Source of the DNA: a virus
Length of the DNA: 64,000 nucleotides
Direction: 5' to 3' (one strand)
Virus record (IMG/VR): IMGVR_UViG_3300050132_000248
Span: 32,001 to 96,000 of that record
Below are positions 1,021-51,800 of the stretch, piece after piece (the stretch's first letter is position 1; each line of letters opens with the position of its first letter). A program made the position numbers and the translations under genes. The notes beneath the pieces are model-generated. The model ran no database searches. It was not told where the DNA came from and saw only the letters and a list, made by a program, of their open reading frames with translations.

Positions 1021-3012
1021 TTAAAAAAGTGAAAGTTGATTTGCTACTGTCTTATTATTTCTCTTTTTTCCTTGAAATTCTACCTTGAAGATGATATTAT
1101 TAGCTTTCTCAATGTAATATGAAAAGTTAATATCCGCATCTTTCACTTGTGTAGTTTTTGGAAGATAATTACAAATAGTCATAACCCACTCACCTGCTTC
1201 TACTTGTGATTTAGCTGCTGCATTAGTTGTGCAACTTGGATTCTTAATTTTATACACCTTCTCTCCATGGTTTGAAACATAATAACGAATAAGTTTGTTA
1301 TAAATATGTTTCTCTCCTGTGGAAAGGATTGTTCCTTCATAATGAAAATCACGAGAAGCTTTTTTCCTAATGCAGAAATCATAAATGTTTGTATGATTCT
1401 TGATTGTCTCTTCAACAGGGATGTTATTAACAAAATATTCCTTGAGAGTAATGGGAATAATTCTCATTGAACTATTCTTGTGCAGAAGTTTGTCAATCTC
1501 AAAATCTCCCTTTTCTTTGGTAGTTCCATCAAGTTTAAGAGCAAGATAATCATTAACAGATGTCTGAGCAATCCATTTAAACTCAGTATATTCAAAATTA
1601 CCAAGAATATCATTTCCAATTATCTTTTCCCATTCAGTTAGAATAGCTTTAAATTCTTCTTCTCTGGAGATTGATATGATTGTATCCCAGCCATCAGTGT
1701 TAATCGAGACAACATTAAAACCCTTCAGAACTAAATCCTCAACAATCATTAATATTTCCATCTGTCCACCAATAGTTACCTGAAGCATTCCGTAAGGATA
1801 TTCCTGAAAATCTCCTTTACTATTTAAACGACCAAAACATCCCCCATTGAGACTTAATTTTCCCATTTCCTGCATAGAGTTATATTTAGGATCTCCTGTC
1901 GCCTTTCCAAGTTTCTTATATTTTAATCGTCTATCAATTTTACTAACAATTAAACTATTCCATCCCGGGAGATGTGAAGGTTCAACTTTATACTTACGAA
2001 TTGCATTTGGATATTGGCTGCCTATATCGCAGGATATGTATTTTTCATCTTCTTTTGGTTGCAGGAATCTACCTACTTCATTACTGTGTGCACCACCTTT
2101 AGCAATAGTAACTATAAGCTTATTAGGAAATGTAAATTTGAATTCCTGTTGCTGGGCAAGAGCATAAGTATTGCCAAATTCTTTTACAAACTTCTTGAGT
2201 TCAGGAGTTTGATAACTTATCCATTTAGGAAAGAACTTCTTGAATGGTTTTCCATAGAATGTAATTATCTGCTTGGGTTTAATATCCTTCTCCAACTTTC
2301 TACTCATCTTCAAATAATCAAGCTTATTCCATTCAGCTCCTATTTTTACATCACTCCAATTAAGACATTTTAGACCAAATTCCTGTTCCATAATAAGTCT
2401 ATCTTCTATCTTATTCTTTCCTTTATATAGAGACATTTCTGTCTTACCAATAGTAATTTTATAGAACTGATAAGTAGCAAAGACATCATTGTGACAATAT
2501 TTAATAACATCATCCATTTGATCATCAGTCATTTCTTTCATCCAATGATCTATTGGCATTTCCTCAATATTTTCAAGACACATGGAAAATTCTAATGATT
2601 TTAATGAGGTACGAAGATTAAGATTTTCATATCCAGAGATTGTAAATAAATCAATCTGTTTGAAAGATAGATATTCTTCTCTATATTGAGGAAGTACACC
2701 ATAATTCCCATCATCAATTACATCTTGTGCCTTCTGATAGATTAGTCCCACTATTTCATCTACAGGGGTATCAATCCACTGTTCATGATTTCTGATTATC
2801 CATTCAATCACCTGACTGTCAAAATGTAAACCATTAAAAGAGATATAGTAGTAATCCTCATGTGTGTCTATGAACTTGATAAGACTATCAAGCTGATTCT
2901 TTCTCCTACTCACCTCAAAATCATAAGTCTTGTCTTCTATAGGATCATAAACACACACAAGGAACATACATCTAATGGTTTCAATGTCATAACATAAAAC
3001 CTTGTCTATCAT
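1021..3012 (-). CDS. polB: DNA polymerase family B with 3'-5' exonuclease domain (663 aa)
   Basis: ExoI YDIET, ExoII FNGLHFD, ExoIII YCHND; motif A SCDIGSQYP, motif B KLSLNG, motif C NTDG; C-terminal QLSLF. Confidence 0.93.
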   Translation of the reverse strand: MIDKVLCYDIETIRCMFLVCVYDPIEDKTYDFEVSRRKNQLDSLIKFIDTHEDYYYISFNGLHFDSQVIEWIIRNHEQWIDTPVDEIVGLIYQKAQDVIDDGNYGVLPQYREEYLSFKQIDLFTISGYENLNLRTSLKSLEFSMCLENIEEMPIDHWMKEMTDDQMDDVIKYCHNDVFATYQFYKITIGKTEMSLYKGKNKIEDRLIMEQEFGLKCLNWSDVKIGAEWNKLDYLKMSRKLEKDIKPKQIITFYGKPFKKFFPKWISYQTPELKKFVKEFGNTYALAQQQEFKFTFPNKLIVTIAKGGAHSNEVGRFLQPKEDEKYISCDIGSQYPNAIRKYKVEPSHLPGWNSLIVSKIDRRLKYKKLGKATGDPKYNSMQEMGKLSLNGGCFGRLNSKGDFQEYPYGMLQVTIGGQMEILMIVEDLVLKGFNVVSINTDGWDTIISISREEEFKAILTEWEKIIGNDILGNFEYTEFKWIAQTSVNDYLALKLDGTTKEKGDFEIDKLLHKNSSMRIIPITLKEYFVNNIPVEETIKNHTNIYDFCIRKKASRDFHYEGTILSTGEKHIYNKLIRYYVSNHGEKVYKIKNPSCTTNAAAKSQVEAGEWVMTICNYLPKTTQVKDADINFSYYIEKANNIIFKVEFQGKKRNNKTVANQLSLF

Positions 3013-3022
3013 TTAGTTAGTA

Positions 3023-5639: not shown

Positions 5640-5657
5640 ATCTCTTATTCCTTTCTG

Positions 5658-6350
<693 letters not shown>

Positions 6351-19078: not shown

Positions 19079-21664
19079 ATGGCAATAATTCGTTATACTA
19101 AGGATGCTACAATTAGGTATGCTTATTTGAATATCTTCCCTGATCAGTTTAAAACAGAGAAAGAGAAGCAGGATGAAAGCTGGGTGAAGAATACCATGGA
19201 CTATTTTGCTAACAAAGCTTATGCAGAATATACAAAGAATAGAGATCCTAAGAGTGGCTTTGTAAAAAATTATGATTTGGTAAAAGGAATTCTTCATGCT
19301 GAAGATTTTTATCAGGAACCTGAGGTGAAATCTTTTGTAGAAATTCTTGAAAAGAATTTAGAGCTTCCTGCGTATGTAAAACATTATTCTATCATGAGTA
19401 CTCCTCTTAATGAACTAATAGGAGAAATAAGCAAGAGACCAGATACTTATAGAATAAAAGCTTTTGATGATGATAGTAGATCAGAAGAACTACAGGCTAA
19501 AACAGATTTGCTTCAGGCATATGTTGTAAATGAAGCAAAGAATCAAATTCTTTTGAAAGCTGCAAAACAGGGACAGAAAATTCCTGATGATCAATTACAA
19601 CAAATGGCTTTTGCAGATGTTAAAGATCAAATAGATACATATACATCAGTGGCTGAGAAATGGGGAAATCATATTCTCACTTCCTGTAAAGCCGAGTTTA
19701 ATACTAAGGAAAAAAGTGAGGACACATTCAGAGATCTTAATATTGCATCCCGGGAGTTCTTTCATATATATGAAGACAATTCAAAAACTGGATTTAATAT
19801 AAATGTGGAGAATCCAAAGAATGTTTGGTTCCTCACCACTCCAGATAGAAAGTATATAAGTGATCCTTCAGGAAGAGCACAGGGAGCATATGCTGCAGGA
19901 ACTGTTAAGGTGATGGAACTTTCAGAAATTATAGAAACCTATCCTGATTTAACTAAGGATGAGATAGATCACTTGAGGAGTAGTCTTCAGGACTATGGAC
20001 TTATCAATGTAAGAGAATCCAATTTAGGAAATTCTAATGTAACTCCTGGAACTGACAGTGTTGAATATGATACATATGATCCTCTGGTTTTACAAACCAG
20101 GATGATGATTGAGTCTGAAATGAAAGAGAATTCTGATACATTAAAAGATTTCTTAGGACTGACATCAAATGTTTCCTCCTTTGGATATAAATATGTGGTT
20201 GTCCATGGATATTGGATTTCCAAAAGAAAGGTGGGGAAGGTAATATATAAGGATGAATTTGAGAATGAGCAATCACAACTTGTTGATGAATCATATAAGA
20301 AAGGAATGATACCCACAGAAATAAGTCTTGAATGGGGATGGATAAATCAATGGTATTATGGAGATAAGATTGGTCCAGATGTTTATCATGTAAAACCTTT
20401 TAAACTATTAAGTTATTGTCCTATCATAGGAACTGTGTATGAAATAAAAAATACTGAAGCTCGTTCTACAGTAGATTTAATGAAACCTTTTCAAGTGATA
20501 TACAATGTATGTATGAATCAACTCTTTAAACTCCTTGAGAAGGAAATAGGAAAGGTGTATTTAACATCTATAAGACATATTCCTATTCCTAAAGATGGTG
20601 ATGCCCAAGATGCTTTAGATGTATGGGAAATGGAAGCAAGGAATAGGGGAGTGGTATTTATTGATGACTCCCCGGAAAATTTAAAGAGTCCAAGTGGGTT
20701 TAATCAATTTCGTGATATTGATTTAACAAGAACAGCAGAAATCCAATCTCGATACACTCTTGCACAACAGATGAAGAATGAATGTTGGGAACTTATAGGT
20801 CTCTCTAAACAGCGTTTAGGTAGTGTATCAGCAAGTGAATCTGCTACAGGTACTAATACAGCAGTGCAACAGAGTTATTCACAGACAGAGCCCTTGTTCG
20901 TTGCACATGAATATATCCTTGGTCAGCTGTATCAAGCAATCATTGATGCTGCTCAATATGTGGAAAGTTCAAAACCCTCTTCCACTATTTCTTATATAAC
21001 AGATGAAGGAGAGAATGCTTTTATTAGTGTCAATGGAACAGATTTAAAATTCCGTGACTTAAAGGTGTTTCCAACCAATCGTCCTGAGGATACTCAGATG
21101 TTTAATGAAATCAGACAGTTGTCTCAAGCTGTTCTTCAGAATGGTGGAACTATTTATGATGTAATAGAACTCTATTCTACGAATTCATTGAGAGCAATGA
21201 AGAAGACATTTAAAGATTTGCAGGATAGGACAATACAACAGCAACAGACAGCACAACAGCAACAACAGCAACAAATTGATCAACAACAGAAACAATCTGA
21301 AGCACAATTGCAGCAACAACAACAACAGGCAGAAGAACAGATGCAGAATGACAATGCTCAGAAAGAACTTGATAGAATTAATAAGAAAGAGATTGCAATC
21401 ATTATGGCAACCAAAGATACTGGTGGACCAGAAGAAGGTGACACAGGTCCTAATGCTGCTGAAATGGGAAAACTTGAGAATGAAAGAGTTAGAGTGACAA
21501 AGGATAACCTTACCAAATTAGCAGAGTTGACAAATAAAGCAAAAGCAGATAATCAGAAGAATGATATTGAAAAGGAAAAGCTTAAAGTGGAAAGAGAAAA
21601 GATAAAAGCAGATATTTCTGTAGCAAAACTCAATGCTAGGAATAGAGGAGGTAAAAAGAACTAA
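19079..21664 (+). CDS. portal protein (861 aa), crAss-like, with Gln-rich C-terminal coil
   Basis: Position after terL, size, SASESATGT segment, helical C-terminus. Confidence 0.8.
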   Translation: MAIIRYTKDATIRYAYLNIFPDQFKTEKEKQDESWVKNTMDYFANKAYAEYTKNRDPKSGFVKNYDLVKGILHAEDFYQEPEVKSFVEILEKNLELPAYVKHYSIMSTPLNELIGEISKRPDTYRIKAFDDDSRSEELQAKTDLLQAYVVNEAKNQILLKAAKQGQKIPDDQLQQMAFADVKDQIDTYTSVAEKWGNHILTSCKAEFNTKEKSEDTFRDLNIASREFFHIYEDNSKTGFNINVENPKNVWFLTTPDRKYISDPSGRAQGAYAAGTVKVMELSEIIETYPDLTKDEIDHLRSSLQDYGLINVRESNLGNSNVTPGTDSVEYDTYDPLVLQTRMMIESEMKENSDTLKDFLGLTSNVSSFGYKYVVVHGYWISKRKVGKVIYKDEFENEQSQLVDESYKKGMIPTEISLEWGWINQWYYGDKIGPDVYHVKPFKLLSYCPIIGTVYEIKNTEARSTVDLMKPFQVIYNVCMNQLFKLLEKEIGKVYLTSIRHIPIPKDGDAQDALDVWEMEARNRGVVFIDDSPENLKSPSGFNQFRDIDLTRTAEIQSRYTLAQQMKNECWELIGLSKQRLGSVSASESATGTNTAVQQSYSQTEPLFVAHEYILGQLYQAIIDAAQYVESSKPSSTISYITDEGENAFISVNGTDLKFRDLKVFPTNRPEDTQMFNEIRQLSQAVLQNGGTIYDVIELYSTNSLRAMKKTFKDLQDRTIQQQQTAQQQQQQQIDQQQKQSEAQLQQQQQQAEEQMQNDNAQKELDRINKKEIAIIMATKDTGGPEEGDTGPNAAEMGKLENERVRVTKDNLTKLAELTNKAKADNQKNDIEKEKLKVEREKIKADISVAKLNARNRGGKKN

Positions 21665-35230: not shown

Positions 35231-36352
35231 ATGACAACCTGCACAAATTGTTTTAGTGGTTGTGTGGAGACCACATCAGATAAATGTGTGAAATACACTG
35301 GGAACGATATTACGTTTCTGAATATTCATACAGGAGATTCCCTTGAATCAATTGAGGAACATATCACGGATTATATAGCTACTGTATTTAGTGGGATAGG
35401 TATAATGCCTGTAATTGAATCAACATTGATTTGTACTACTGTGAAGCAATTTCTTCCTTGTGATGATTGTGGTGCTCCTACATTAGTAGATATTCTCACT
35501 GCTATCATAGAAGCAATATGCTCACTTGAAACTCAGATTGTCGCTAATACAGCATCAATTAATACTATAGAGGCAACTTATGATGTAAGCTGTTTCAGTG
35601 GTACACCAATTGTAGGAACTCATGCTGTTCTTCAAGCAGCTATTACAACTCTCTGTGCAGCAATAGGAAATATAACAACATTGCAAAATCTTTTTGCAAC
35701 GTGTATTACAACCAGTAATATTAATACCTATATCCAGAATTATATAAATGCTCAGTCAAATGTCAATATGTATACCAAAATGGTACCATATGTCATTTAT
35801 CCTTTTTATCCAAGCACAACAATTATGTCAGGAGCATTTGACATCAATGGAATAGGATTGGGAACATGGCAGAATATATATCTCTGTAATGGATATGGTG
35901 GCTTCACTCCTGACTTAAGAGGAAGAAGTTTAATTGGAACAACAGATATGGGTGGTGGACCATTTAATCCTAATGTGGATCCCGGGAGTGGTAATCCAAC
36001 TTACAATCTAGGTACTCTGAATGGACAGAATTCTGTAACTCTTTCTTCTCCACAAATACCAGCACATACACATACAACTAATGTTGTAGTAACTGATCCT
36101 ACGGGTCTTGCAGAAATTCCATTTGGAGGTGGTGAGATTTTTACAACCATGAGTGGTGGTCAGTTCGCAATTACTGAAATTAATGGTGTAGGTAGTAGTG
36201 TAGCACCTGAGCAGAAATCAACTACTGTTCCAGTAACTATGACAGATCTTTCTGTAAGTGTTTCAATTAATCCAAATTCACCAGCAGGAAGTGCTCATAC
36301 AAATGTTCATCCTGTACTTGGTGTATATTATATTATGTTCATACCTTCTTAA
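35231..36352 (+). CDS. tail-collar domain protein (373 aa)
   Basis: LCNG..TPDLRGRSLIGT..G..SVTLSSPQIPAHTH..HTNVHPVLGVYYIM is the phage tail-collar pattern. Confidence 0.8.
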   Translation: MTTCTNCFSGCVETTSDKCVKYTGNDITFLNIHTGDSLESIEEHITDYIATVFSGIGIMPVIESTLICTTVKQFLPCDDCGAPTLVDILTAIIEAICSLETQIVANTASINTIEATYDVSCFSGTPIVGTHAVLQAAITTLCAAIGNITTLQNLFATCITTSNINTYIQNYINAQSNVNMYTKMVPYVIYPFYPSTTIMSGAFDINGIGLGTWQNIYLCNGYGGFTPDLRGRSLIGTTDMGGGPFNPNVDPGSGNPTYNLGTLNGQNSVTLSSPQIPAHTHTTNVVVTDPTGLAEIPFGGGEIFTTMSGGQFAITEINGVGSSVAPEQKSTTVPVTMTDLSVSVSINPNSPAGSAHTNVHPVLGVYYIMFIPS

Positions 36353-38006: not shown

Positions 38007-38028
38007 TGTCGTTTTTAATATCATATCT

Positions 38029-38766
38029 ATGGCAATCCTTCGTAAGCTCGTAAGTGATGTCCGCAGTCTTCATAAATTGCTTTCTACAGATAGTATAGCA
38101 ACGGATAGGATGATAGCTAGTGAATTGAAAGTAAATGCACTTTTATTACTCAAGAGGGAAACAAACCTAAGAAGGTTGTGGGCTACAGACACAATTTTTA
38201 CCACTATACCCTGTCTTCAGATGATTGAAGTACCTATCTCAGAATGTTGTGATTATGCTGATCCCTGCAATATAGCAAGAAGTAAATTACATCTTCCACG
38301 GATATGTGAAGGAAACTATCAATATCTCATACAGGGAGTCTATTCAATAAATGCCATGAGAGGCAAAGCCACAAAACTCAAAGAGGTTACAATCAATAGA
38401 TATATCAACCTCCTGAAACTTCCAATTGTAAAGAAAGAGAATTATTATTGGATAGCAAATGATTATCTATATGTAACCAATCCAATGGTGCAAAAGGTAA
38501 GAATGGCTGCTTTGTTTGAAGAAGATGTTCCTAATGAATTAATGTATCCAGAATGTGAATGTGGAGAAGCTCCTCCTTTAGATGAATTATGCAAGAATCC
38601 TTTGGATAAGGAATCTTTCATTCCCGGGTATTTGGAAAAACAAGTTCTTCAACTGACATCACAAACATTATTAAGTACATACTTTGGAGTAAGGATGGAA
38701 ACAGAACCTTTGAGTGGTGTAGATGAACAGGTAGCTGCACCTCCACAAAATCAAAGAGGGAGATAA
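38029..38766 (+). CDS. putative tail ring/adaptor protein (245 aa)
   Basis: ORF track; position in the crAss-like ring-HU-ring-muzzle order. Confidence 0.55.
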   Translation: MAILRKLVSDVRSLHKLLSTDSIATDRMIASELKVNALLLLKRETNLRRLWATDTIFTTIPCLQMIEVPISECCDYADPCNIARSKLHLPRICEGNYQYLIQGVYSINAMRGKATKLKEVTINRYINLLKLPIVKKENYYWIANDYLYVTNPMVQKVRMAALFEEDVPNELMYPECECGEAPPLDELCKNPLDKESFIPGYLEKQVLQLTSQTLLSTYFGVRMETEPLSGVDEQVAAPPQNQRGR

Positions 38767-38770
38767 TACT

Positions 38771-39262: not shown

Positions 39263-39273
39263 AATAGAACAAG

Positions 39274-40236
39274 ATGTATTATTATCGTTATAATTTCGTA
39301 TCCCCAGAATCCTCATTTGCTACAATTAAGGAGGAATTCAAGTCATATTTTGATACCTCTGCGATAGACGACCTAATGTTTCCTACATGGTTAAATAAGG
39401 CTCTAAACAAATTGGGTAAGTCTTCATATATAATCAGTGAAGAGATTTTGTACATTAAAGATTTTGAAGACAGACTTCCTGATAATTTTTATGCTGTAAG
39501 AGAAGCATGGGCATGTACAGAGATGGTAGGATATCCTTATCAGACTGCTAATTCATTTTATTCTCAGGCAGCCTCTGCAACAACTATTCAGGTGTCTCCA
39601 ATGGTAGTGGATGGACAACCTTGCAATGATCCTGTATGTCCAAACGATGCATGTGACCCATGTATGCCAAATCTGGTACAGGCTATCTATAAAACTAATA
39701 ATGAGTTCACAAGAACATTTCATAAGGAATATTTACTACAACCCGGGAATATATCTGTTAGACAACATTGTGATGTAGAATATACATCTGCTTGGGATAG
39801 AGTTTCAAAGATACATCAGAGTACACCTTTCTCTTCTTCTTATGATTCTTTTGATATCAGAGATAATAAATTTGTCACTAATTTCAGAGATGGGATTGTT
39901 CATCTTGTATTTTATGCCACTGAATATGATAATTTGGGTAGTCAGATGATTCCTGATAATTTTCGTATAAAGGAATATGTAGAAGCATATATTAAGATGA
40001 AGTTAATTGAAATGCTTGTAAATCAAGTAACTGATGAAACTTTTAATCAACTTCAACAGAAACTCGTTTATTATACAAAGCTACATGACGAAGCTCTTAT
40101 TCTAGCGTTCTCAGAAATAAAATCACAAGATATTTGGACAAAGCAGAGAAGAATAAAAAAGGATTTAAATCGTTTTAACATGTATGAACTCCCGGGAAGT
40201 ATACCTAATAGACATTCTTGGAAACGTAATGTTTAA
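39274..40236 (+). CDS. putative tail ring protein (320 aa)
   Basis: ORF track; C-terminal IPDN..KEYVEAYIKMK helix; precedes the muzzle-like gene. Confidence 0.55.
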   Translation: MYYYRYNFVSPESSFATIKEEFKSYFDTSAIDDLMFPTWLNKALNKLGKSSYIISEEILYIKDFEDRLPDNFYAVREAWACTEMVGYPYQTANSFYSQAASATTIQVSPMVVDGQPCNDPVCPNDACDPCMPNLVQAIYKTNNEFTRTFHKEYLLQPGNISVRQHCDVEYTSAWDRVSKIHQSTPFSSSYDSFDIRDNKFVTNFRDGIVHLVFYATEYDNLGSQMIPDNFRIKEYVEAYIKMKLIEMLVNQVTDETFNQLQQKLVYYTKLHDEALILAFSEIKSQDIWTKQRRIKKDLNRFNMYELPGSIPNRHSWKRNV

Positions 40237-40241
40237 TTGAA

Positions 40242-43200
40242 ATGACTGAGGAAGAAGGAAATATAAAGCAGGAATTTAACTTTGCTCAAACAGGACTTAA
40301 TCTTGATTTGACCCCATCACAAGTCAAAGAAGGAATGACAACTTTTTGCCTTAATGGTTCTGTTGAAAATTTTGATGCAAACGGAATATCTTATCAAAAT
40401 GAACAGGGCAATGAATTTTGTATTTCTTTTCCTGAAGGATTTGTTTTAATTGGAAAGCATTTCATTAATGAGCAAAGCAGACATATTTTCTTTATTACTA
40501 ATCCAAATGAACCTGCTTATCCAGATCAGATTGGTTATATGGATAATAATGATGGCTTATACCATATAATGATACAGGGTGCTTTTGGTTTTAACATTCA
40601 TTATCCTATTCATAAATGTGTACATAAAATAAATAATTGCTCCACAGAAATATACTGGACAGATGGCCTTAACTCAAGACGCTATCTCAATTTTGATAAA
40701 ATCCCATATGTATTAATTGGAGGAACACCTGCGTGTAATCCCATCTATGGAACTGATATTGATGTTAATCAATTAAAGCTTCAGCCTAATTTTAATATTC
40801 CTGAGCTTTCTGTAAGTGATGTAACTAATGTAGGAACTCTTGTTGAGGGTACATATCAGTTTGCTATTCAGTATTGTGACATCTCTGGCAATGAATACAC
40901 CTCTTATTATTCTGTTACAAATCCCACACCTATTACTGATACATCTATAGTTTCAGTTAATTTTAATAATCAAATAGGAAAGTCAATTGTCCTTGATATA
41001 ACTAATCTTGATCTAAGTGGACAGTTTCAGTATTTCAATTTAGCTGTTATAAAAACTATTAATGCTATTTCTTCTGTAGAATTAGTAGGAACTTATTTCA
41101 TAGAGGGAGATAGTAAACAAATAATCTATACAGGACAGTCTTCCAGTAATACAACTACAAATATTCGACTTTCAATAAATGATATATTTGAGAAGTTTCC
41201 CTATTATGATATTGCTAATGATCTAACAGCTGTTCAGGATGTTCTTGTATGGGACGATCTTATATCTATTGATAGGATTAATTATCAAGGGATTGCGAAT
41301 GGAATTACTCTGCAATGGCAAACTTGGAGAATTCCTGCAGATGAGAATTATTCCAATGAATTGAATGCAACTAATTATCGTTCTTATTTAAGAGATGAAG
41401 TGTATCCATTTGAAATAGTTTTCTTATTGAAGAATGGAAAACAAACAGATGGATTTCATATCCCGGGAAGAGCAAAGGATTTTAATGAATTACATCAACC
41501 TGATGTTCCCAACACTGATGCTGATTTCATAGGAACTCCTGATTACTATGATAGTGAAATAGGTTATTCTCCTTTTTGGAAAATTTACAATACAGCAAGT
41601 GTTGTAGAGAATGATCCTGAATATACAACTGATCCTGAGTATAAAGGACCTTATCAAACAGGAGAATTTGCATATTGGGAATCTACTGAACAATATCCCT
41701 GTAATAAAGATGTGTGGGGAGAGCTTGCAGGACAAAATATAAGACATCATAAATTTCCTGATATTCTTGTTTCTCCAATTTTTGAATCACAGATATTCAC
41801 TGGAATGAGTGGAATGGTAATGAGTAATGAAGCCATTTTTCCAATAGGTATTAAAATTGATGTAGATCAGATAAAGACATTGATTAATATATCCTCTCTT
41901 ACAACTGAACAGAAAGGTGATATTGTTGGATTTAAAATAGTTAGAGGAGACAGATCAACAAACAAATCTGTTATAGCAAAAGGCATATTAAGGAATGTAG
42001 GTATTTATACAAGAGAAAATGATATAGGAGAAAACAATTCATTCTATTTTCCAAATTATCCTTATAATGATTTGAATGAAGATGTGTTTATTAATAGAAC
42101 TAATAATGCATATACAGATGAATGTGCTTCCTATGATATTACAATAGATAATATTCCTCCGACAAGCCCAATAAACCCTCCTGATCCTATCACAGGAAAA
42201 CCTTATGCTGAGGTAAGTTATGTTGATTGCAGTACTAATAACAATACAACTATAAAATACTTTACTATAGGATCAACTGATCCTATAACAGGAAATCCTT
42301 ATAGAATTTGTTCTATTGGCAGACCTTCATTTGATCAGGGAACTGGAACTGTATGTACATCTTCTTATGAGGTGTGGAATGTACATTCAGGAGGATGGCT
42401 TAGCAGAGGATATAGATATGGTTGGTATGACAGATGCAAGGGTTGGAGTGAAGATTGGATGCCGGGAAATGAATGGGGAGGAACTGCGGTGAGTGTTCAG
42501 GTGGTTCCTAATACAGGAGGGGTAACACAGGTAGAAGGACCAGGAAGTATTCATACATCTTATGTAGAAACTATAACCCCAGAAGGTATTTCATGTTCAG
42601 AGGCACAAGGTCTTCCTCCAATTAGAAGCAATCCTTCTCTTGCATATAGACAAATATTTAACTCTCCTGAAACATCTTTCAGTAAGCCTTTCTTAGGAAA
42701 CATTCTTAAACTTGAGAATGTTATATTTGGAGCTGGAATAGCTCATTTTGCAGAAGTGAAAAACAATGCAAAATACAGACTGATTACAGAGGAAGCTCAG
42801 CATGATGCTTTAACTGCTTCTGAAATAATGGCAGCTATGGCTAGTCCATTTGATCCTCAGGTAATGTTTAGTGCCTATCAGACTTATCTTCAAATATATC
42901 TTAATGGTATCACAAGAAAGAATTTTGCTTATTCATATAACTCAATAGCAAATTATGACTATTGGGCAGATATTCCAAATGGTCAGGGAGTAAAACAACG
43001 CAACCTTGATATTAAAACATATTTGGTACCAAATGTGGTATCTACTACTGATGACAATCCTTTAAATAATTGGGAGAGGGAAACCTCTATTTATTTAAGA
43101 ACGGTAGGAGCATTAGATGATAGTGTTCCTCCATTGCCATTTCCAGACCAGAGTCCTGATATACCTATAGCCAATCCTCCTCTAATAGAAAAATCAAGAG

Positions 43201-46058
43201 TAACAGCAAGTGGATGTGATGATTGTAATTATCCTAATAGGAATGTACCCATCACTGTTGTTTCTTATTATGCTTCTATCAAAGATGATTTTGTAAATCA
43301 ATGGGGACAAATTTATTCATATACCACTATTGATACAGGATATCAGAATACACTTACGAATATAGCCTATAATACTATTTTTGGAGGAGACACCTTTATT
43401 AATAGATTTGCATTTAAAATCAAACTTCCATTCTTTCTTGACAATAGAGTGAATGCTCCTGATGATAGTGATATATTCTATGATGAAATTGGAAATGTTG
43501 GTTTTCCTGTTTATTGGCATTCAGCAAGATCTATACTGAAAGATTATGTGATACAGAAAGTTGGAAGAAATGCTGCAAAAGACGCTGAACCCTTAACTAA
43601 TATCATATCATACAAGGCTCATAATTTTGATTGTCCTAATAGTCAAGGAGAGACATATGATTCATCAGGAAATGTAATTAGTACTGATACAACTGCTCCC
43701 GGGAGAACATATTATTCTGGATATTATTATCTGTTTGCATATGGCATTCCTAACTTTTATTGTGAGAGTTCTGTGAATGTCGATCTTAGACAGGCTTTCA
43801 ATAGTAAGGAAGGAGATTTCTTTCCCCATGTAACAAATCATATTCCTGATGATTGGGTACAGGAAAGCAAGGTTTCTATTGCTAATGATAATACCTATTA
43901 TTATAATACAACCTTTTCAAAGCAAAATAAAGAAAATGTATTTACACATCTTCCTCCAGATTGGGAATCTGACCTTTGTTATACTCTCTATCCTTTTAGA
44001 GCCATCTATTCTGATTCACAAAATACAGATGCTGATAACAGAGTGAATGCATGGCTTAATTATAGGGCTCTTTCATATTTTGATTTTCCTCAGAACTATG
44101 GAAATCTTATATCCCTTGATGGTATTCAGAACAGAGCTATTCTGGCAAGGTTTGAAGATAAGACTTTAATGTATGATAACCTATTGACAATTGATACAAG
44201 TAATCCTCAGGCAGCTTATGTAGGAAATCCTAATATGTTTAGGAAGTCTCCACCAATTGATTTTGCTGAAACTGATCTTGGTTATCTTGGGAGTCAGAAT
44301 ACAATGCTTTTAAAAATTCCACAAGGACAATTAACTGTAGATGCAAAGAGAGGACAAGTGTTTCTATTAAATGGATCCTCTAATGCTGTTGATCTTTCTG
44401 GATTTGGTTCTGGATTAAATAGATTTTTCACCGATCATTTAGCTTTTGAAATCCTTCGATGGTTTCCCGATGTAGATACAGATAATAATTATAATGGCAT
44501 TGGTTTACATGGAGTGTATGACAGTAAGTTTGACAGACTCATTCTTACTAAACTTGATTATATACCTATTGATAAAAATGTAAAATACGATTCTGTTACA
44601 AGAGATTTCTATATTGAGAATATTACATCAATGCATGTTTGTGATTGTGCATTATTTGGAATTGCTTATGGAATAGATCCTTTCACATTAGAAGGAGAAG
44701 CATGGCAGGGAGGATCTCCTCCTGAAGTTCCTATGGCACCTTATACACAACAACCTTGTGCTTCTCATCAATTTACTCAAAGAGTAATTGTGTCTCTAAA
44801 TGATCCTAATTATTTCTGTAATAAGTCATGGACTCTTTCATATAATGTAAATACAAAGAGTTGGATTAGCTTCCATAGTTATATTCCTAATTGGTATATT
44901 GGAGAGAATAATTTCTTCTATTCAGGAATAAATGGTTGCTGTGGAGATTTTGATTTTATTGCAGGAACAATGGTCACTACTACAAGCACCACAAGTACAA
45001 CGAGTACTACAACTACTCTACATCCTCCTACAACAACTACTACATCAACTAGTACATCAACAACATCTACCACCACTACAGCAACTACGAGTACAACTAC
45101 TACATTATATCCACCAACAACAACCACCACTACGACAATTTGTCAAAGACCTATGGGACTAACTAATTATCCACTTGTTACAGGATATACACTCACCACT
45201 CCTCCAGTTGAATTTGGTTCAACAGGTAGTGAAGCAGAAGCCTGTAGTGCTGAATACTTCTTATCAACTTATGATATTTCAAAGGATCCAAACGGATTGT
45301 TAGTAAATATTCTACGTGCTCAAGCATTTTCATTATCCTTATGGCAAAAAGTTTACAATGGATGGGTAGCTACTGATTGTAATGTTGTTCCTGATGGATG
45401 GTATTTCACTGAAGAACTTATGTACTCCAATCTGGTATTCAATGTTATAAGTGGAATAATTGTTGAAATAGATTCATGTATATCAAGTACGACAACTACA
45501 TCTTCTACAACAAGTACTACCACCACTCTATATCTGAATAATTGTGGAGACATTATTTTGTATAATAGTGGACTTATGTATGAGAAGGATTATTCAATTT
45601 CAGTAGGTAGTGTAACAGGGACAACCTTATTTGATTTTAATACTGATGTTGACCCAGTTAGGTTCATAGTAATATGGAATTCATCCAATGTTATAGATAC
45701 AGGATATCATGGTGATGTAGATTATGATTTTGGTGGAGCAAATAGATCAATGTTCAATTTTGGTTTATTAGGAAAAATTGATCCTGTAACACATAATGCA
45801 TATCCCGATGCTATAACATATACTGATGATGGATATCCAAGAATAAGTTCTGCCACAGTTGCTACTTATTCATTTAGCAAATCAACAGCAAGTCCAACTA
45901 ATGTTGAGGTATCTATATATTCATCAATAGATGATTCAACAGGAAAATTCAGACTTTATTGCCCGGGAGTAACCACTACAACTACAATAACTCTCACACC
46001 TACAACTACTACTACCACTACACATATAGCAACCACTACGACAACAACAACACATTAA
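40242..46058 (+). CDS. tail muzzle/stabilisation-like protein with Thr-linked C-terminal domains (1938 aa)
   Basis: IYWTDG, IRHHKFP, FGGDTFI, VYDSKFDRLILTK, WTLSY..WISFHSYIP segments typical of crAss-like muzzle proteins. Confidence 0.72.
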   Translation: MTEEEGNIKQEFNFAQTGLNLDLTPSQVKEGMTTFCLNGSVENFDANGISYQNEQGNEFCISFPEGFVLIGKHFINEQSRHIFFITNPNEPAYPDQIGYMDNNDGLYHIMIQGAFGFNIHYPIHKCVHKINNCSTEIYWTDGLNSRRYLNFDKIPYVLIGGTPACNPIYGTDIDVNQLKLQPNFNIPELSVSDVTNVGTLVEGTYQFAIQYCDISGNEYTSYYSVTNPTPITDTSIVSVNFNNQIGKSIVLDITNLDLSGQFQYFNLAVIKTINAISSVELVGTYFIEGDSKQIIYTGQSSSNTTTNIRLSINDIFEKFPYYDIANDLTAVQDVLVWDDLISIDRINYQGIANGITLQWQTWRIPADENYSNELNATNYRSYLRDEVYPFEIVFLLKNGKQTDGFHIPGRAKDFNELHQPDVPNTDADFIGTPDYYDSEIGYSPFWKIYNTASVVENDPEYTTDPEYKGPYQTGEFAYWESTEQYPCNKDVWGELAGQNIRHHKFPDILVSPIFESQIFTGMSGMVMSNEAIFPIGIKIDVDQIKTLINISSLTTEQKGDIVGFKIVRGDRSTNKSVIAKGILRNVGIYTRENDIGENNSFYFPNYPYNDLNEDVFINRTNNAYTDECASYDITIDNIPPTSPINPPDPITGKPYAEVSYVDCSTNNNTTIKYFTIGSTDPITGNPYRICSIGRPSFDQGTGTVCTSSYEVWNVHSGGWLSRGYRYGWYDRCKGWSEDWMPGNEWGGTAVSVQVVPNTGGVTQVEGPGSIHTSYVETITPEGISCSEAQGLPPIRSNPSLAYRQIFNSPETSFSKPFLGNILKLENVIFGAGIAHFAEVKNNAKYRLITEEAQHDALTASEIMAAMASPFDPQVMFSAYQTYLQIYLNGITRKNFAYSYNSIANYDYWADIPNGQGVKQRNLDIKTYLVPNVVSTTDDNPLNNWERETSIYLRTVGALDDSVPPLPFPDQSPDIPIANPPLIEKSRVTASGCDDCNYPNRNVPITVVSYYASIKDDFVNQWGQIYSYTTIDTGYQNTLTNIAYNTIFGGDTFINRFAFKIKLPFFLDNRVNAPDDSDIFYDEIGNVGFPVYWHSARSILKDYVIQKVGRNAAKDAEPLTNIISYKAHNFDCPNSQGETYDSSGNVISTDTTAPGRTYYSGYYYLFAYGIPNFYCESSVNVDLRQAFNSKEGDFFPHVTNHIPDDWVQESKVSIANDNTYYYNTTFSKQNKENVFTHLPPDWESDLCYTLYPFRAIYSDSQNTDADNRVNAWLNYRALSYFDFPQNYGNLISLDGIQNRAILARFEDKTLMYDNLLTIDTSNPQAAYVGNPNMFRKSPPIDFAETDLGYLGSQNTMLLKIPQGQLTVDAKRGQVFLLNGSSNAVDLSGFGSGLNRFFTDHLAFEILRWFPDVDTDNNYNGIGLHGVYDSKFDRLILTKLDYIPIDKNVKYDSVTRDFYIENITSMHVCDCALFGIAYGIDPFTLEGEAWQGGSPPEVPMAPYTQQPCASHQFTQRVIVSLNDPNYFCNKSWTLSYNVNTKSWISFHSYIPNWYIGENNFFYSGINGCCGDFDFIAGTMVTTTSTTSTTSTTTTLHPPTTTTTSTSTSTTSTTTTATTSTTTTLYPPTTTTTTTICQRPMGLTNYPLVTGYTLTTPPVEFGSTGSEAEACSAEYFLSTYDISKDPNGLLVNILRAQAFSLSLWQKVYNGWVATDCNVVPDGWYFTEELMYSNLVFNVISGIIVEIDSCISSTTTTSSTTSTTTTLYLNNCGDIILYNSGLMYEKDYSISVGSVTGTTLFDFNTDVDPVRFIVIWNSSNVIDTGYHGDVDYDFGGANRSMFNFGLLGKIDPVTHNAYPDAITYTDDGYPRISSATVATYSFSKSTASPTNVEVSIYSSIDDSTGKFRLYCPGVTTTTTITLTPTTTTTTTHIATTTTTTTH

Positions 46059-46059
46059 A

Positions 46060-46923: not shown

Positions 46924-46924
46924 T

Positions 46925-48859
46925 ATGAGTGGGTGGCTAGACAAATATGAAGATGGTGGAAAGATGCAAGAGCATCAGGCAAACTTCAACAACAGTGTTG
47001 TAAAGATTCCTGATGGATTTGTTGGTCAAGGAGAAACTATGCCTAATTGGAAATCCCCAGCTTGGAAAGGTCAATTTCAATATGGTGGAATTCTCGATAC
47101 TAAAGAATTTAATCCTATCCCCGGGAGCAAGGGAAATGATGAATACAAAGGACAGGAAGCAAACAGTTATTGGACTGATGAAAAGACACTTCCTCGTAAT
47201 TTAAGAAATAGAGCAAAGATTGGAAGAAGACCTTCTCCACAGGAAGAACAACAGATTAACCAATCAAAAGAATATGTAGGAAGTGATCCTAAAACAGAAA
47301 GTGATGTATACAGAATAAATGGTGAACTCATTAGGAAGTATGCCTACCCTGATTTCAATGATGGTGGGAATGATCATGCCTATCCAAATTTTGTACCCAA
47401 AGGAGAAGTTTGGTTAGATAAAGACAATGTAGGACAAGATGGAAAGACAACATTAGCTCATGAGCTTCTTGAGAGAGAAAAAATGATGGGGGGAATGTTC
47501 TATGACAAATATGGCAAGGATGGAAAAGAAGCTGGAGCTCATGTTCAGGCTTTAAAATTTGAGAATGAAATAAGGAATGGAAAAGCTGAGGTGCCTCAAT
47601 TGATTAATAATCAGACACAATCCCCAGATCAGCAATTACAACCTTTGTCTCAACCTCAAATGAAGAATGGAGGATGGTTAGAGAAATATGAGAATGGTGG
47701 AGAAATGTCCTATTATCAAAATGGATTGGATTTTAAACCAAGAACAATTAGTCAGAATGGTTCTATCACTCCTCCAAGTATAAAAGAAGCTTCTCAGAAT
47801 GAATTCAAATCACCTGAGAATATAAATTCATTAATGAATATATCAGATCCATTAATTACTCCTCAATTTGACAAAGATGGATTACCTTTATATAATGTAA
47901 ATGATGTTCATAATACTTTATTAGAGGCAGTGTCTCCAATGATAAATTTACAGGATAATAGAAAAATACAACAAACAACAGGTAAACCACTTCCTTCTAC
48001 CGACAGAGTATCAAGAAATATTCCTTCATATGGAGTAAGACAATTATTAGATAGATCAATAAATAAAGGATTAAATAGAGAGGATGCTTGGAATGTATTA
48101 GGTATAGCATTACAGGAATCAGGATTCGGGCAAGAAGCTAATGGAGATATAAATATAGGTCATGTAAAATTACATAATGAGAATGATGATGATCCATTTA
48201 CTGATCTAGTTAATACATATAAAGATAAGATGCAACTTGCTACTGATGTAGGATATACTAATCCTTTGCGTAGATTGCAAGTATATAATGGGGATAAGAA
48301 ACTCTATCGTAATACAGAACAGAATTATTATGGACATACAAATGATAAGTATTATGGAGTTCCTATTCCTCCTGAAGGTATAGATGTAAAAAAGAATCCT
48401 TTGTTTGGAAAACAAATAACTGATCTAAAAGAAAATGTTTTAAAGAGGAATCCTGATCTTTATGATATTATGGAAGAGTATTATCCAAGCTCTTCAGATA
48501 AACATCCTGCTAAACAATCTACTAATCAAGATCAATATGATCAAGGAGGAGTAGTAAAAGATAATATGGGCTATTGGAATCCAATGAATAGAGGAAGAGT
48601 TGTTGAAATTGATTCTCCCAATATAACAATGAGAAATATTACTGAGCCTCTCCTTGGAATTTCAGACTCTGGAGATAAACAAATGATGTATCCCGGGAAT
48701 GATTATAAGTTTATTGGAAAGAAAGTGAGAGAATATCCTATTGCTCAGAAGGGAGGAAAATATCCTTCTACAAGATACGGTATCAATGAATTACATCAAT
48801 TACAAGATTTTACTAATAAACCATCTAGTAAAAATTGGTTGAATAAATATAACTCGTAA
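46925..48859 (+). CDS. virion cargo/ejection protein with HExxE metal-motif domain and lysozyme-like domain (644 aa)
   Basis: LAHELLERE..AH; IALQESGFG..VYNG transglycosylase-like motifs; repeated xxGG motifs. Confidence 0.55.
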   Translation: MSGWLDKYEDGGKMQEHQANFNNSVVKIPDGFVGQGETMPNWKSPAWKGQFQYGGILDTKEFNPIPGSKGNDEYKGQEANSYWTDEKTLPRNLRNRAKIGRRPSPQEEQQINQSKEYVGSDPKTESDVYRINGELIRKYAYPDFNDGGNDHAYPNFVPKGEVWLDKDNVGQDGKTTLAHELLEREKMMGGMFYDKYGKDGKEAGAHVQALKFENEIRNGKAEVPQLINNQTQSPDQQLQPLSQPQMKNGGWLEKYENGGEMSYYQNGLDFKPRTISQNGSITPPSIKEASQNEFKSPENINSLMNISDPLITPQFDKDGLPLYNVNDVHNTLLEAVSPMINLQDNRKIQQTTGKPLPSTDRVSRNIPSYGVRQLLDRSINKGLNREDAWNVLGIALQESGFGQEANGDINIGHVKLHNENDDDPFTDLVNTYKDKMQLATDVGYTNPLRRLQVYNGDKKLYRNTEQNYYGHTNDKYYGVPIPPEGIDVKKNPLFGKQITDLKENVLKRNPDLYDIMEEYYPSSSDKHPAKQSTNQDQYDQGGVVKDNMGYWNPMNRGRVVEIDSPNITMRNITEPLLGISDSGDKQMMYPGNDYKFIGKKVREYPIAQKGGKYPSTRYGINELHQLQDFTNKPSSKNWLNKYNS

Positions 48860-51800
48860 TGAAAAAAGAAATATTAAAGATGGCTCACGTTAGATCGGAA
48901 GAGGCCTTCTATCGCAAATACCCTACTGAAGCTGCCTTCATGAAAGAGCATTCTAAAGAATTTAAAAAAGCTTTACGTGGTACTGCTATTAAGAAAGCAC
49001 AACAGGGTGCTAATCAATCTGCATACAATCAACAGAATGCAGGAATGAATGCTATGGCTGCAGGTGAATCTGAGGTTCAGGATGCTATTGCAAATTTGTC
49101 AACAGGAACTCCAAAGAAAACTGTAGGGCAAGATATTGAGAGTGTTACTAATGATATTCCTGTTGTTGGTGGACTTGTCAAGGATGTAGTGGGTATATTT
49201 GATGCAAGTAATGAAGCAAAGCAACAGAAGAGAGCTGGAGCATTAAGTGATCTTCAAGTGAAGGCAGCAATGTCTCAACCAAGACCACAGAATAGAAAAT
49301 ACAACAGACCTGACTTAGATGCTAATGTAGATGATGTTAATTCATTAACGCCAGCACAGGGAACAGGAACCAATCTACTTGGAAGAAATGGAATCATATT
49401 ATCCAGAGGAGGAGAAATTACAAATACATATGCTCCAAATGATATATACACAAATGGAGGATATAGTCCTCTTAGTGATGAAGATAGAATGAAAGCTTAT
49501 TATTATGGTGGACATATTCCTAAATCAGATGCTGGGAGTATTATAAGTAGTGTTCTTGGTAGTAGTGGAGGAAGTGGTGGTGGAGGAGGAATATTAGGTG
49601 GTCTTCTTGGCGGTGGAGGGGGTAGTACTACTACAGATACAACTACTCAGGATCCAGCTAATCGAGTGATTAGATATGTTCAAGCACAAGATGGAACTAC
49701 CACTACAGGTATATCCACTACATCTTTTGGAAATACATGGATTGGAAAAGTTCTTCAAGGTCAAAATGTTAACAGCAGTTTAATAAAGAATCCAACAGTT
49801 GCTAATAATGTTTCTCAAATAGGTCAAACTTTACAAACAGGTGTATCTGCTATCCCGGGAGGAGATAATAAAATGTCCAGCTCTATTAAAGGATTGGGAA
49901 ATACAGTAGGTAGTGCAATTCCTCTTCCGGGGGCAAGTGAAGCTCTTGGAATTGCAGGAAGTCTTATAGGAGATACTATAACGAATAATATGGGTGGAAC
50001 AAAAGCAATGGCAAGAGTACAAAGAAATAATGATCGACTCTCTGCCATATCAGCTTCTAAACTAATGCAAAGCAATCAGAATAAATATATGAGGACAGGT
50101 GGAAACCTGAGACAGAACTATTCTCCAGATATGGAAAGAAGTGGAGAGTTAACACCTCTCTGGGGAGGACATGCTGAACCTATCTCCTATAATCCTTATT
50201 CACCTAATGGAGGAGAAACTGTGATGTTCAGAGGAAAATCTCATGAAGAGTCTGCTGGTAATGGAAGAACAGGAATTGGTGTGAGATATGGAGAAGGAGC
50301 ACCACTACAGTCTTATCAGGATGGTGGTAATACCAATGCTAATGTAGAGGTGGAAAGAGGTGAACCTGCTATGCAGATGCCTGACAATACAGGAACTAGT
50401 AATCTGGTTGTCTTTGGTAATCTACCTATTCCAAATCAATTCATTAGTCAATTAGGAGATCCTAATGCAAAGGGAAAGAAATTCAAAAGCTATGTTGCTG
50501 ATTTGTCAAAACAGGAAGACAAACAGAATAAACTCATAAAGAATACAAGCAGTCAATTACAGGACTTGGATCCTAAGACACCATTTGATAAACTTAAATT
50601 CAATAGTCTTTCTCTTGCTCTCAATGGAGCCAATGATAAATTGAAAGACCTTGCACAGAAGAAACAGAATACTGCTCATTTACAACAGGCAATTAATGAC
50701 ACAGCAGAAGAACAGGGAATAGATGCTGATGCTCTTGCAAAAGGAAAAATACAAACAGCAAAGAAAGGAACTAAAGTTTCTAAAGCACAGTTAGGTAAGA
50801 ATGTAAAAACAGACCCTGAACTTGATGAAGGTGAAACCTATGAAGGATTAAGATCAAGTGAAAATAAACTTACAACAGACTTGGATAATATGCGAAGAAC
50901 AGATCCAAGACAATATGAACCAAAGGGTAGTGATAGATATAATCAATATAAAAATGAGTTTCTTGATAAGCAAACAGATTTGAATAGCCTAAGAGATAAG
51001 ATTATAAGAGTAGGAAGAAGACAGGATGCTGATAAAGAGGATTACACAAATGATACTTATGGTGGGGTTCCTGGTTCACAAACAGTAGCAAATGATCTTA
51101 ATCGTGTTAGAGATTTCTTTAATATTGTTCCTAGATCAGAGGCAGCAGTTAATATTAATTCTCGTAGAGGGCCTATTGTTTTAGGTAGAAACAATTCAGT
51201 AAGTAATAATTCAGGTATAGGTTTTCCTATAGGAGAGGGGAATGGATATGTACCTTCAGATGGATCAACAGTTTCTAATCCAACAGTTGTTTCTATACCA
51301 AATAGACAGAGTTATGCAGCAGCTCCTTCTGATGCACAATCAAAAAAAGCTTCTATAGAACAATCTATGAATCTTCGTACTATCCCAGATGTATCAGTTG
51401 CAAATATTGATCAAACTGATCCCATGCAATATCAGAGTGTGATACCAATGCAGTCACCTAGTGAGAGTTGGATTCATGATAAACAAGTAGGTTCATCTTA
51501 TGCACCAATAATGCCAATAGATTCTTCAGATTGGAATAATACTCATATGTCTAAGCTTGATTCTCAATCTGCAAAGAAACAGATTCCTCAATACTTTAAT
51601 CCTATTGGGAATTACCTACCAAGCAATAAAGAGCAATTGGATCCACGTCAGCTTACAGGAGAATATTATGCATTGTCTACTAATGATTTAGAACCTGTTC
51701 CTGCTCAACAATATCATCCTAATTTACTCACGCCTTACGAAATCTCAATGCAGGATATTCTGAATGAGAATACAGCAGCTACAAGAGGAGCCCAGAAATA

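Follow-up and report, generated by a model that had tools for sequence, protein, structure and literature searches.

Pro-Gly codon spelling and a surplus of the palindrome CCCGGG in a crAss-like phage genome

Why should the GC-rich palindrome CCCGGG recur so often in a phage genome with a GC content of 33% and a CpG observed/expected ratio (o/e) of 0.26? The question is raised by a stretch of 64,000 nucleotides (here called the window), bases 32001 to 96000 of the 117,331-bp IMG/VR virus record IMGVR_UViG_3300050132_000248, in which a first-pass annotation had listed 14 copies of the hexamer, nine of them extended to the octamer TCCCGGGA. The record is rated complete by CheckV, and its genes are arranged as in crAss-like phages, including open reading frames of 4609 and 2402 amino acids (aa); the nearest named phages, Cellulophaga phi4:1/phi17:2 and the Flavobacterium Fpv phages, share only 26 to 32% protein identity with it. 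Comparison of window positions 33000 to 52999 with public runs placed the phage in peat and permafrost metagenomes of several studies. The answer that we favor, with a probability of a little under 40%, has two layers: a dilemma between two restriction sites at Pro-Gly codon pairs and, on top of it, a biased-repair ratchet that completes the palindrome.

All 14 hexamers and all nine octamers lay exactly at the positions listed by the first-pass annotation, while dinucleotide-preserving shuffles of the window predicted 0.72 hexamers and 0.07 octamers, and none of 100 such shuffles reached the observed counts. The whole genome contains 20 hexamers, 15 of which are the octamer, versus 0.7 to 1.1 hexamers expected from Markov models of order 1 to 2; this corresponds to densities of 170 hexamers and 128 octamers per Mb. 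CCCGGG had the top z-score of all hexamers and was the sole strongly over-represented sequence among the 64 hexamer palindromes. A more demanding null model was generated by Markov-chain swaps of synonymous codons, with the proteins and the exact codon usage kept and with CCWGG and CpG capped at their observed values. It produced 3.0 to 3.3 ± 1.7 hexamers in the coding sequences (maximum of 8 in 120 samples) versus 19 observed, and 0.7 ± 0.8 octamers (maximum of 4) versus 14 observed. A fuller version, in which CTAG, GGCC, TCCGGA, and GCGC were also capped at their observed values, left the expectation unchanged (3.3 hexamers). The enrichment therefore survived the CCWGG-constrained shuffles that had been named as its check, and these results confirmed that (T)CCCGGG(A) is about six times commoner than is allowed by a model that preserves proteins, codon usage, and restriction avoidance.

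The coding sites were almost all of one kind (Table 1). Eighteen of the 19 encode Pro-Gly, eight as CCC GGG and ten as nnC CCG GGA, and the only exceptions genome-wide were one Ser-Arg-Glu site in the portal gene and one intergenic site. The earlier statement about all three frames is correct to the letter but misleads, since only the site at 19749 differs among the coding sites, and it overstates the independence of the motif from coding. The portal site is built from two rare codons, TCC (7%) and CGG (0.8%).

A Pro-Gly pair is written CCN-GGN, which is necessarily either CCWGG or CCSGG, and CCSGG includes CCGG; a phage can therefore clear one of CCWGG and CCGG from its Pro-Gly pairs but never both. 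We collected 240 related loci from IMG/VR and JGI metagenomes through portal, capsid, and structural-protein searches (protein identity of 46 to 80%), of which 123 remained after redundancy was removed. In 98 of these 123 loci (1.75 Mb) there was not a single CCGG, versus 583 expected from a first-order model in which CpG depletion is already included, while CCWGG stood at 1.28 times its expectation and all 2151 Pro-Gly pairs were spelled CCW-GGN. Seven loci, the closest relatives of the phage among them, showed the reverse, with 6 CCWGG versus 89 expected and 84 CCGG versus 38 expected; the CCWGG o/e of the closest relatives was 0 to 0.2. In alignments, conserved orthologous Pro-Gly pairs (IPGLT, KFPGY, VPGYL, KPGNI, and HIPGR) were spelled CCA/CCT-GGN or CCC/CCG-GGN according to the regime. 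As judged from these genomes, the loci demonstrate that avoidance of CCWGG and avoidance of CCGG are two mutually exclusive regimes within the phage family. A limited literature search found no published description of such a CCGG/CCWGG dilemma at Pro-Gly. The family is very CpG-poor throughout (o/e of 0.01 to 0.5 in related loci L001-L243), and GCGC is also absent in many of its members; the family-wide CpG poverty and the missing CCGG together point to hosts with dense CG-targeting restriction. The relatives had been mis-binned into Sediminibacterium, Cytophagales, Kapaibacterium, and Flavobacteriaceae metagenome-assembled genomes, which gives only a rough host range.

The phage studied here avoids CCWGG, a restriction target of the EcoRII/PspGI type. 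Its genome has 30 CCWGG sites, versus 100 to 127 expected and about 80 in free codon shuffles, and CCSGG is approximately 5-fold over-represented. The surviving CCWGG sites were concentrated at Pro-Gly, with 25 of the 30 being CCW-GGN pairs; restriction avoidance is expected to leave sites where synonymous codons offer no way out. The proteome has 58 Pro-Gly pairs, 25 of them CCW-GGN and 33 CCS-GGN, and CCC and CCG make up 8% and 3%, respectively, of the Pro codons overall. The estimate that about three quarters of Pro-Gly pairs use CCS-GG was accurate for the window (25 of 34), the genome-wide share being 33 of 58. More than half of the CCGG sites (33 of 53) were at Pro-Gly, and the constrained null gave 48 to 52 CCGG versus 52 observed in coding sequence, so that the surplus of CCGG and CCSGG is fully explained. 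The same null accounted for only about 3 of the 19 coding hexamers. Thus, it upheld the earlier proposal that CCWGG avoidance explains the shift to CCSGG but not the full palindrome, since it yielded the CCGG total without the hexamers. We consider it very probable that CCWGG avoidance is what turns Pro-Gly into CCS-GGN in this genome: CCWGG is gone from nearly every place where its removal was cheap, 33 of the 58 Pro-Gly pairs now read CCC-GGN or CCG-GGN, and each rewritten pair already carries five of the six bases of CCCGGG. A HpaII-type Vsr (CTGG to CCGG) as the agent of the CCW to CCS change was rejected, as CCAG/CTGG was not depleted and CCGG outside Pro-Gly was not enriched. A loss of Pro-Gly at the protein level was also considered; 30 of the 67 Pro-Gly positions of CCGG-avoiding relatives are changed here, a number that is uninterpretable without a turnover baseline.

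The step from CCS-GGN to the palindrome requires only synonymous changes, GGA to GGG after CCC or NTT to NTC before CCG, and on the DNA the two are identical (TCCGGG to CCCGGG). A C stood before 10 of the 17 CCG codons that are followed by Gly, versus 4 of 21 for other CCG codons, and GGG followed CCC in 8 of 16 cases, versus 7 of 75 after other C-ending codons. No relative with more than 85% nucleotide identity was found among GenBank phages, IMG/VR, or JGI metagenome contigs, and two more distant genomes served for comparison: G1, the closest large relative (66.9 kb, syntenic, 63 to 79% nucleotide identity), and G446 (IMGVR_UViG_3300022930_000001, L262-L267), a complete 118.7-kb relative with terminal repeats that belongs to an independent lineage. 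G446 also avoids CCWGG (10 versus 52 expected), but none of its 33 CCS-GGN pairs is a hexamer, versus 18 of 33 here, and its whole genome contains a single hexamer; completion of the palindrome is therefore lineage-specific. Pro-Gly in G446 is mainly T CCG GGT (15 of 42), and with 0 hexamers versus roughly 3 expected at the 33 CCS-GGN pairs, CCCGGG may be avoided in that genome. G1 was intermediate, with 7 hexamers, all of them Pro-Gly, among 32 CCS-GGN pairs. Eleven of the hexamers studied here could be aligned to Pro-Gly in G1, where 2 were hexamers, 8 were other CCSGG, and 1 was CCWGG; typical pairs, G1 versus here, were CCC GGA versus CCC GGG, ATT CCC GGA versus ATC CCG GGA, and TGT CCG GGA versus TGC CCG GGA. 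Where a second outgroup, L170, could be aligned as well, the two outgroups agreed that the completing GGG or C was derived in the lineage of the phage, and the flanks were derived rather than inherited at a minimum of seven of nine testable sites. Ten Pro-Gly pairs remain one completing transition short.

Table 1. Positions and contexts of CCCGGG sites (window coordinates unless marked as genome), with the spelling in relatives
Site	Position	Context	Relatives
TCCCGGGA	1963..1970	CTC CCG GGA = Leu-Pro-Gly on minus-strand gene 1021..3012 (DNA-polymerase-like)	
TCCCGGGA	19748..19755	TCC CGG GAG = Ser-Arg-Glu in portal gene 19079..21664	TCT AGG / TCT AGA / GGA AGA
CCCGGG, flanks T..T	23074..23079	GTT CCC GGG TTA = Val-Pro-Gly-Leu, gene 23056..24609	CCWGG-avoiding relatives ATT CCC GGT/GGA; CCGG-avoiding relatives ATC CCA GGT
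TCCCGGGA	24515..24522	TTC CCG GGA = Phe-Pro-Gly	Flanking C ancestral: CCGG-avoiding relatives TTC CCA GGA; hexamer common to relatives G1, G2, L084, L087
TCCCGGGA	35980..35987	GAT CCC GGG AGT = Asp-Pro-Gly-Ser, gene 35231..36352	Mostly GAT CCT GGT/GCT
CCCGGG, flanks T..T	38623..38628	ATT CCC GGG TAT = Ile-Pro-Gly-Tyr	GGG derived, because G1 CCC GGA, L170 CCC GGC
CCCGGG, flanks A..A	39742..39747	CAA CCC GGG AAT = Gln-Pro-Gly-Asn	G1 CCC GGA; L170 CCC GGT
TCCCGGGA	40190..40197	CTC CCG GGA = Leu-Pro-Gly	G1 CTT CCT GGT; L170 CTT CCG GGT
TCCCGGGA	41461..41468	ATC CCG GGA = Ile-Pro-Gly, 1938-aa structural gene 40242..46058	G1 ATT CCC GGA; L170 also ATC CCG GGA; CCGG-avoiding relatives ATT CCT GGT
TCCCGGGA	43697..43704	GCT CCC GGG AGA = Ala-Pro-Gly-Arg	GGG derived, because G1 and L170 both CCC GGA
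CCCGGG, flanks G..A	45962..45967	TGC CCG GGA = Cys-Pro-Gly	G1 TGT CCG GGA
CCCGGG, flanks C..A	47120..47125	ATC CCC GGG AGC = Ile-Pro-Gly-Ser, gene 46925..48859	
TCCCGGGA	48691..48698	TAT CCC GGG AAT = Tyr-Pro-Gly-Asn	Hexamer common to G1
TCCCGGGA	49853..49860	ATC CCG GGA GGA = Ile-Pro-Gly-Gly, gene 48859..52329	G1 ATC CCC GGA; L170 ATC CCA GGA
AATCCCGGGATT, only intergenic CCCGGG (genome 15903)	genome 15898-15909 (16.1 kb left of window)	Perfect 12-bp palindrome between two minus-strand early genes	

The positions of the sites were not conserved. The two of 11 hexamers common to G1 are what chance predicts from its share of 7 hexamers in 37 Pro-Gly pairs, although at 63 to 79% identity this comparison has low power. 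Lack of conservation among related phages had been named in advance as a result that would tell against the motif, and this one does so in part, as far as selection on individual sites is concerned. The hexamer at 35981, the sole one checkable among the differences listed for a strain about 1% divergent (run X2), was unchanged there.

Completion also appeared to favor the octamer. Fourteen of the 18 completed sites were octamers, whereas completion of the 10 remaining one-transition precursors would yield only 2 (P = 0.005). An A followed the hexamer on 35 of 40 strand-sides, versus 7 of 19 after CCGGG outside the hexamer and a base rate of 48% after GGG. Part of this flank bias is due to the local coding context, since Pro-Gly follows hydrophobic residues, Gly is mainly encoded by GGA, and the next codons start with A; the evidence that completion is specific for 8 bp is therefore moderate. 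The process was uneven along the genome, with 10 of 12 CCS pairs completed between 67.9 and 82 kb of the genome versus 8 of 21 elsewhere (P = 0.03), and CCWGG and CCGG were also patchy; the patchiness suggests that the genome could be a mosaic of modules with different histories. A 1404-aa fiber-like gene at window 28920-33134 has 8 CCGG and 0 hexamers. The fiber cassette to which it belongs (window 28920-33134 and 33680-35113) has a locally higher GC content (0.385); it seems to have been exchanged recently and to have an avoidance history unlike that of the rest of the genome. We also rejected a general drift from T to C on the 5' side of CCGG, since TCCGG was at its expectation (25 versus 24). 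The palindrome surplus is real, lineage-specific, strand-symmetric, and similar in behavior to the highly iterated palindromes (HIP) of cyanobacteria, and there is little doubt that it exceeds what CCWGG avoidance alone brings about.

We infer that a strand-symmetric, lineage-specific force acting at the DNA level completes the palindrome by synonymous third-position changes and prefers those changes whose product is TCCCGGGA. This force could be a host-dependent, methylation-linked biased-repair ratchet of the very-short-patch or HIP type, in which a T mispaired with G at the outer position of a methylated (T)CCCGGG(A) site would be repaired to C:G and precursors would thereby drift one way into the palindrome. 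A methylation-dependent mismatch-repair ratchet has been proposed by Elhai in 2015 for the iterated palindromes of cyanobacteria (PMC4390886). A neutral ratchet fits the single DNA-level transition, the lack of positional conservation beyond chance, and the two sites outside Pro-Gly. As the specific cause of completion it is proposed with low confidence, at clearly less than even odds.

Several observations weigh against the ratchet. The phage genome lacks genes for methyltransferases of the C5, N4/N6, and Dam types, with no match to PF00145, PF01555, or PF02086, and the CCWGG- or CCCGGG-specific methyltransferase that the first-pass annotation had suggested looking for in the phage was accordingly not there; Vsr (PF03852) also had no match in the genome. 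A methylation-linked process must therefore come from the host. However, a HIP-like octamer density was found in none of 41 Chitinophagales and 401 Bacteroidota species genomes, which are a sample of the phylum only, and the maximum in the 441 sampled Bacteroidota genomes was about 60 octamers per Mb versus 128 per Mb in the phage. The precursor TCCGGG/CCCGGA was not depleted (13 versus 4.6 to 10 expected), although the change from CCW to CCS, which is still under way, keeps supplying it. Three sites (23074, 38623, and 39742) have GGT or GGC in relatives and require a transversion or two steps. The T..A flank preference needs an 8-bp specificity that would be unusual for Vsr partners, and the uneven completion would fit a genome-wide mutation bias only if the genome is a recombination mosaic. 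Neither a methyltransferase, a Vsr, nor a host was identified for the ratchet. The repair-related genes of the phage encode RecA, a UNG-like glycosylase, a ligase, and an exonuclease. A GHKL-ATPase protein was rejected as MutL because it is an rIIA homologue, and a UDG-family protein was rejected as a T:G glycosylase, being UNG-like by name.

The comparison with Vsr points in the same direction. Dcm and Vsr of Escherichia coli leave a mild very-short-patch footprint, in which CCWGG is enriched and CTWGG/CCWAG are depleted. The ratchet proposed here would resemble this system in its unidirectional change of T to C toward a methyltransferase target, in the resulting palindrome surplus, and in the use of synonymous positions, but the phage lacks the corresponding depletion of the precursor word. 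CTCGGG occurred 6 times versus 3 to 5 expected. CCTGGG (3 versus 18) and CCAGGG (4 versus 18) were equally low and therefore reflect general CCWGG avoidance and not a Vsr footprint. In addition, the phage has neither a vsr gene nor an m5C methyltransferase, and methylation would have to fall on the outermost C of CCCGGG, a position at which, to our knowledge, no characterized enzyme methylates.

The most serious competitor of the ratchet is that the octamer is positively selected because it is recognized by a dimeric DNA-binding protein or a host methyltransferase that needs many copies of TCCCGGGA, perhaps to shield, package, or condense the DNA, as a Chi-like protective signal, or in regulation. 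Copies would then gather at the lowest cost, which is at Pro-Gly pairs with a CCSGG in place. A perfect palindrome of 8 bp that prefers certain flanks is what a dimeric protein typically recognizes, selection permits any mutational path, including the transversions implied at 23074, 38623, and 39742, and it suits both the near-saturated completion in the tail/structural module (10 of 12 CCS Pro-Gly pairs, 10 sites in 14 kb) and the two sites made outside Pro-Gly, at a rare-codon cost or in intergenic DNA; HIP1 itself has been argued to be maintained by selection (PMC5861425). However, positions are not kept between relatives, the spacing is irregular and shows no association with promoters or gene ends, ten one-transition Pro-Gly pairs were left unconverted, and there is no candidate binding protein. 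The shielding version, in which an unavoidable CCGG would be guarded against CCGG-specific restriction by lying within a methylated hexamer, is contradicted, as it predicts the removal of CCGG outside Pro-Gly, where 19 were seen versus about 19 expected. A related idea, that CCCGGG is a safe harbor from CCGG-specific restriction, was rejected because the rare CCGG of CCGG-avoiding relatives were found in all contexts; the four loci whose sole CCGG is CCCGGG share one orthologous site. Overall, we regard selection as rather unlikely in itself but as almost equal to the ratchet in probability; the first-pass annotation had put forward both selection for a methylation or binding site and a HIP1-like repair bias. 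The opposite extreme, that no extra force acts and that the hexamers result from CCWGG avoidance, inherited flanks, codon usage, and chance, can claim that CCWGG avoidance lifts the expectation from 0.7 to about 3. On a generous baseline it rises to roughly 6, because 28% of the CCA-GGN pairs in CCGG-avoiding relatives are preceded by C and need only one A to G change (as at 24516), and G1 (7 of 32) and the remaining close relatives (7 of 41) come close to it. The 18 to 19 hexamers seen are far above 3 to 6, with P = 0.008 for C-CCG even at the 28% baseline and P = 6e-5 for CCC-GGG at a 10% baseline, and both the absence of hexamers from the 33 pairs of G446 and the derived flanks (at least 7 of 9) speak against inheritance or chance. 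A pure by-product or chance is close to excluded.

A further hidden avoidance constraint would arise if the host restricted a word that overlaps the non-palindromic CCSGG, e.g., CCCGGA/TCCGGG, which would leave CCCGGG as the sole harmless spelling of Pro-Gly. Every completing change does remove CCCGGA/TCCGGG, and the lineage has lost TCCGGA (0 versus 5 to 9 expected) and most GCGC (o/e of 0.2), whereas G1 has 5 TCCGGA and does not avoid GCGC, so that the host restriction repertoire differs between the two. Many other palindromes are also missing, including ATCGAT, TTCGAA, GCTAGC, and ACCGGT (0 each genome-wide, as for TCCGGA) and GCATGC (1 copy). However, 13 CCCGGA/TCCGGG were left, which is above expectation, capping TCCGGA did not alter the null (3.0 versus 3.3), and alternatives such as CCC GGT were scarcely used. 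Furthermore, no flank separates retained from converted sites, and no word that discriminates between them came to light; CCC GGA TAT was kept at window 35045 and converted at 38623. Such a constraint is improbable. Still less credible, to a degree that we would hardly consider it, is a phage-encoded CCCGGG-specific DNA methyltransferase that makes the site harmless or useful. The sole S-adenosylmethionine (SAM) methyltransferase of the phage, a 209-aa product of genome 591-1220, matches Methyltransf_24, has weak PHROG matches labeled DNA methyltransferase, and contains an SPPT motif. The amino-methyltransferase motif is (S/D/N)PP(Y/F/W), and SPPT lacks its aromatic last residue. The gene lies inside a glycosyltransferase cluster here and in three relatives, its homologues are named O-methyltransferase or class I SAM methyltransferase, there was no NCBIfam or PDB match, and the phage loci that carry homologues have 0 CCCGGG in 5 to 21 kb each; the lack of matches to PF00145, PF01555, and PF02086 in the genome adds to this. 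No close relatives of the 209-aa protein were found in viral contigs. The cluster at the left end (genome 591-2637) combines Methyltransf_24, GT2, and GT6, and homologous methyltransferases in other 120-kb phage contigs likewise lie within glycosyltransferase clusters, which suggests that this may be a phage-encoded glycan-modification module.

The ratchet reading invites comparison with the cyanobacterial palindromes, HIP1 (GCGATCGC) and its variants GGCGCC, rCCGGy, GCsGC, and GGGATCCC (PMC4390886; PMC5861425). These occur at 1000 to 2000 per Mb, with a methyltransferase that recognizes part of the palindrome in the same genome (PMC4390886), and HIP1 is found in all reading frames and in non-coding DNA, independently of the encoded peptides, and is conserved between relatives beyond control motifs (PMC5861425). 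Like HIP, the phage motif is a short GC-rich perfect palindrome (of 8 bp), many-fold over-represented relative to both composition- and codon-aware expectations, dispersed in coding sequence, and written in non-preferred codons, with palindromic flank extensions and one-off variants at the outer positions; in both cases a methylation-linked repair ratchet competes with selection as the explanation. In contrast to HIP, it belongs to a virus and not to a cell, it is about 10 times less dense (170 hexamers per Mb), nearly all copies encode the single dipeptide Pro-Gly in two frames, the phage genome has no cognate methyltransferase, and its sites are not conserved in position (2 of 11 in G1, at low power), whereas HIP1 sites are. 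It also lacks the GC dinucleotide, the methylated cytosine of which directs mismatch repair in Elhai's model (PMC4390886). Thus, the phage motif falls short of a HIP: it is too sparse, it is tied to particular frames, its genome has no cognate methyltransferase, and its positions are not conserved.

Two simpler relationships were also considered, both of which predict a deficit. Phage genomes commonly avoid restriction sites, so that palindromes are under-represented, and this phage conforms with respect to CCWGG (as its relatives do with respect to CCGG), CTAG, GGCC, GCGC, TCCGGA, ATCGAT, and TTCGAA. What differs from plain avoidance is that avoiding one site here forces a surplus of another, the two being the sole spellings of one dipeptide. 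Among the further deficits were TCTAGA (4 versus 42 to 58 expected), CTAG (o/e of 0.16), and GGCC (o/e of 0.25). The hexamer is identical to the target of SmaI/XmaI-type restriction-modification, but a restriction target is expected to be depleted in a phage, whereas CCCGGG is enriched and the enriched unit is the octamer TCCCGGGA. No SmaI/XmaI-type system was found in the phage, and we know of no characterized enzyme for the octamer.

Other features were noted in passing. The other top-scoring 8-mers, e.g., GCTATGGC and GCTTATGC, were rejected as dispersed motifs because they stem from two local tandem coding repeats. One of these, (GGC TAT/AAT/GAT)n, lies just left of the window (genome 30604-30891) and encodes a Gly-Tyr/Asn/Asp repeat protein, and another, (GCT GCT TAT GCT GCT)n at window 5536-5930, encodes an Ala-Ala-Tyr repeat in a 230-aa minus-strand gene. 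Also left of the window, a DnaB-like helicase gene (genome 24919-27165) contains an intein (Hint and a LAGLIDADG homing endonuclease), and a free-standing LAGLIDADG gene (genome 17813-18661) adjoins the primase gene. A permafrost run contained a strain about 1% divergent, with a contig depth of about 130x; in the same run there were a variant with 57 bp deleted at 37615-37673 and several small deletions clustered at 43557-43575, amounting to 15 bases in total.

These results show how a phage can be caught at one dipeptide between restriction at CCGG and restriction at CCWGG, as Pro-Gly is unwritable without one site or the other. The family is split into two nearly exclusive spellings, so the spelling of Pro-Gly records the kind of host defense that a phage has faced, and it could be used to mark the host range of crAss-like phages that have not been cultured. 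Palindrome completion offers an analogue, on a small and manageable scale, of the decades-old HIP1 problem, and since ancestral, intermediate (G1), and control (G446) genomes are at hand, the ratchet can be tested against selection. It is doubtful that TCCCGGGA is a true HIP-like viral element, actively maintained either through a methylation-linked ratchet of the host or because a protein-recognition site is selected for; on that same doubtful reading the octamer would ride on a dipeptide squeezed between two restriction specificities. If this were true, it would be the first such iterated palindrome outside the cyanobacteria.

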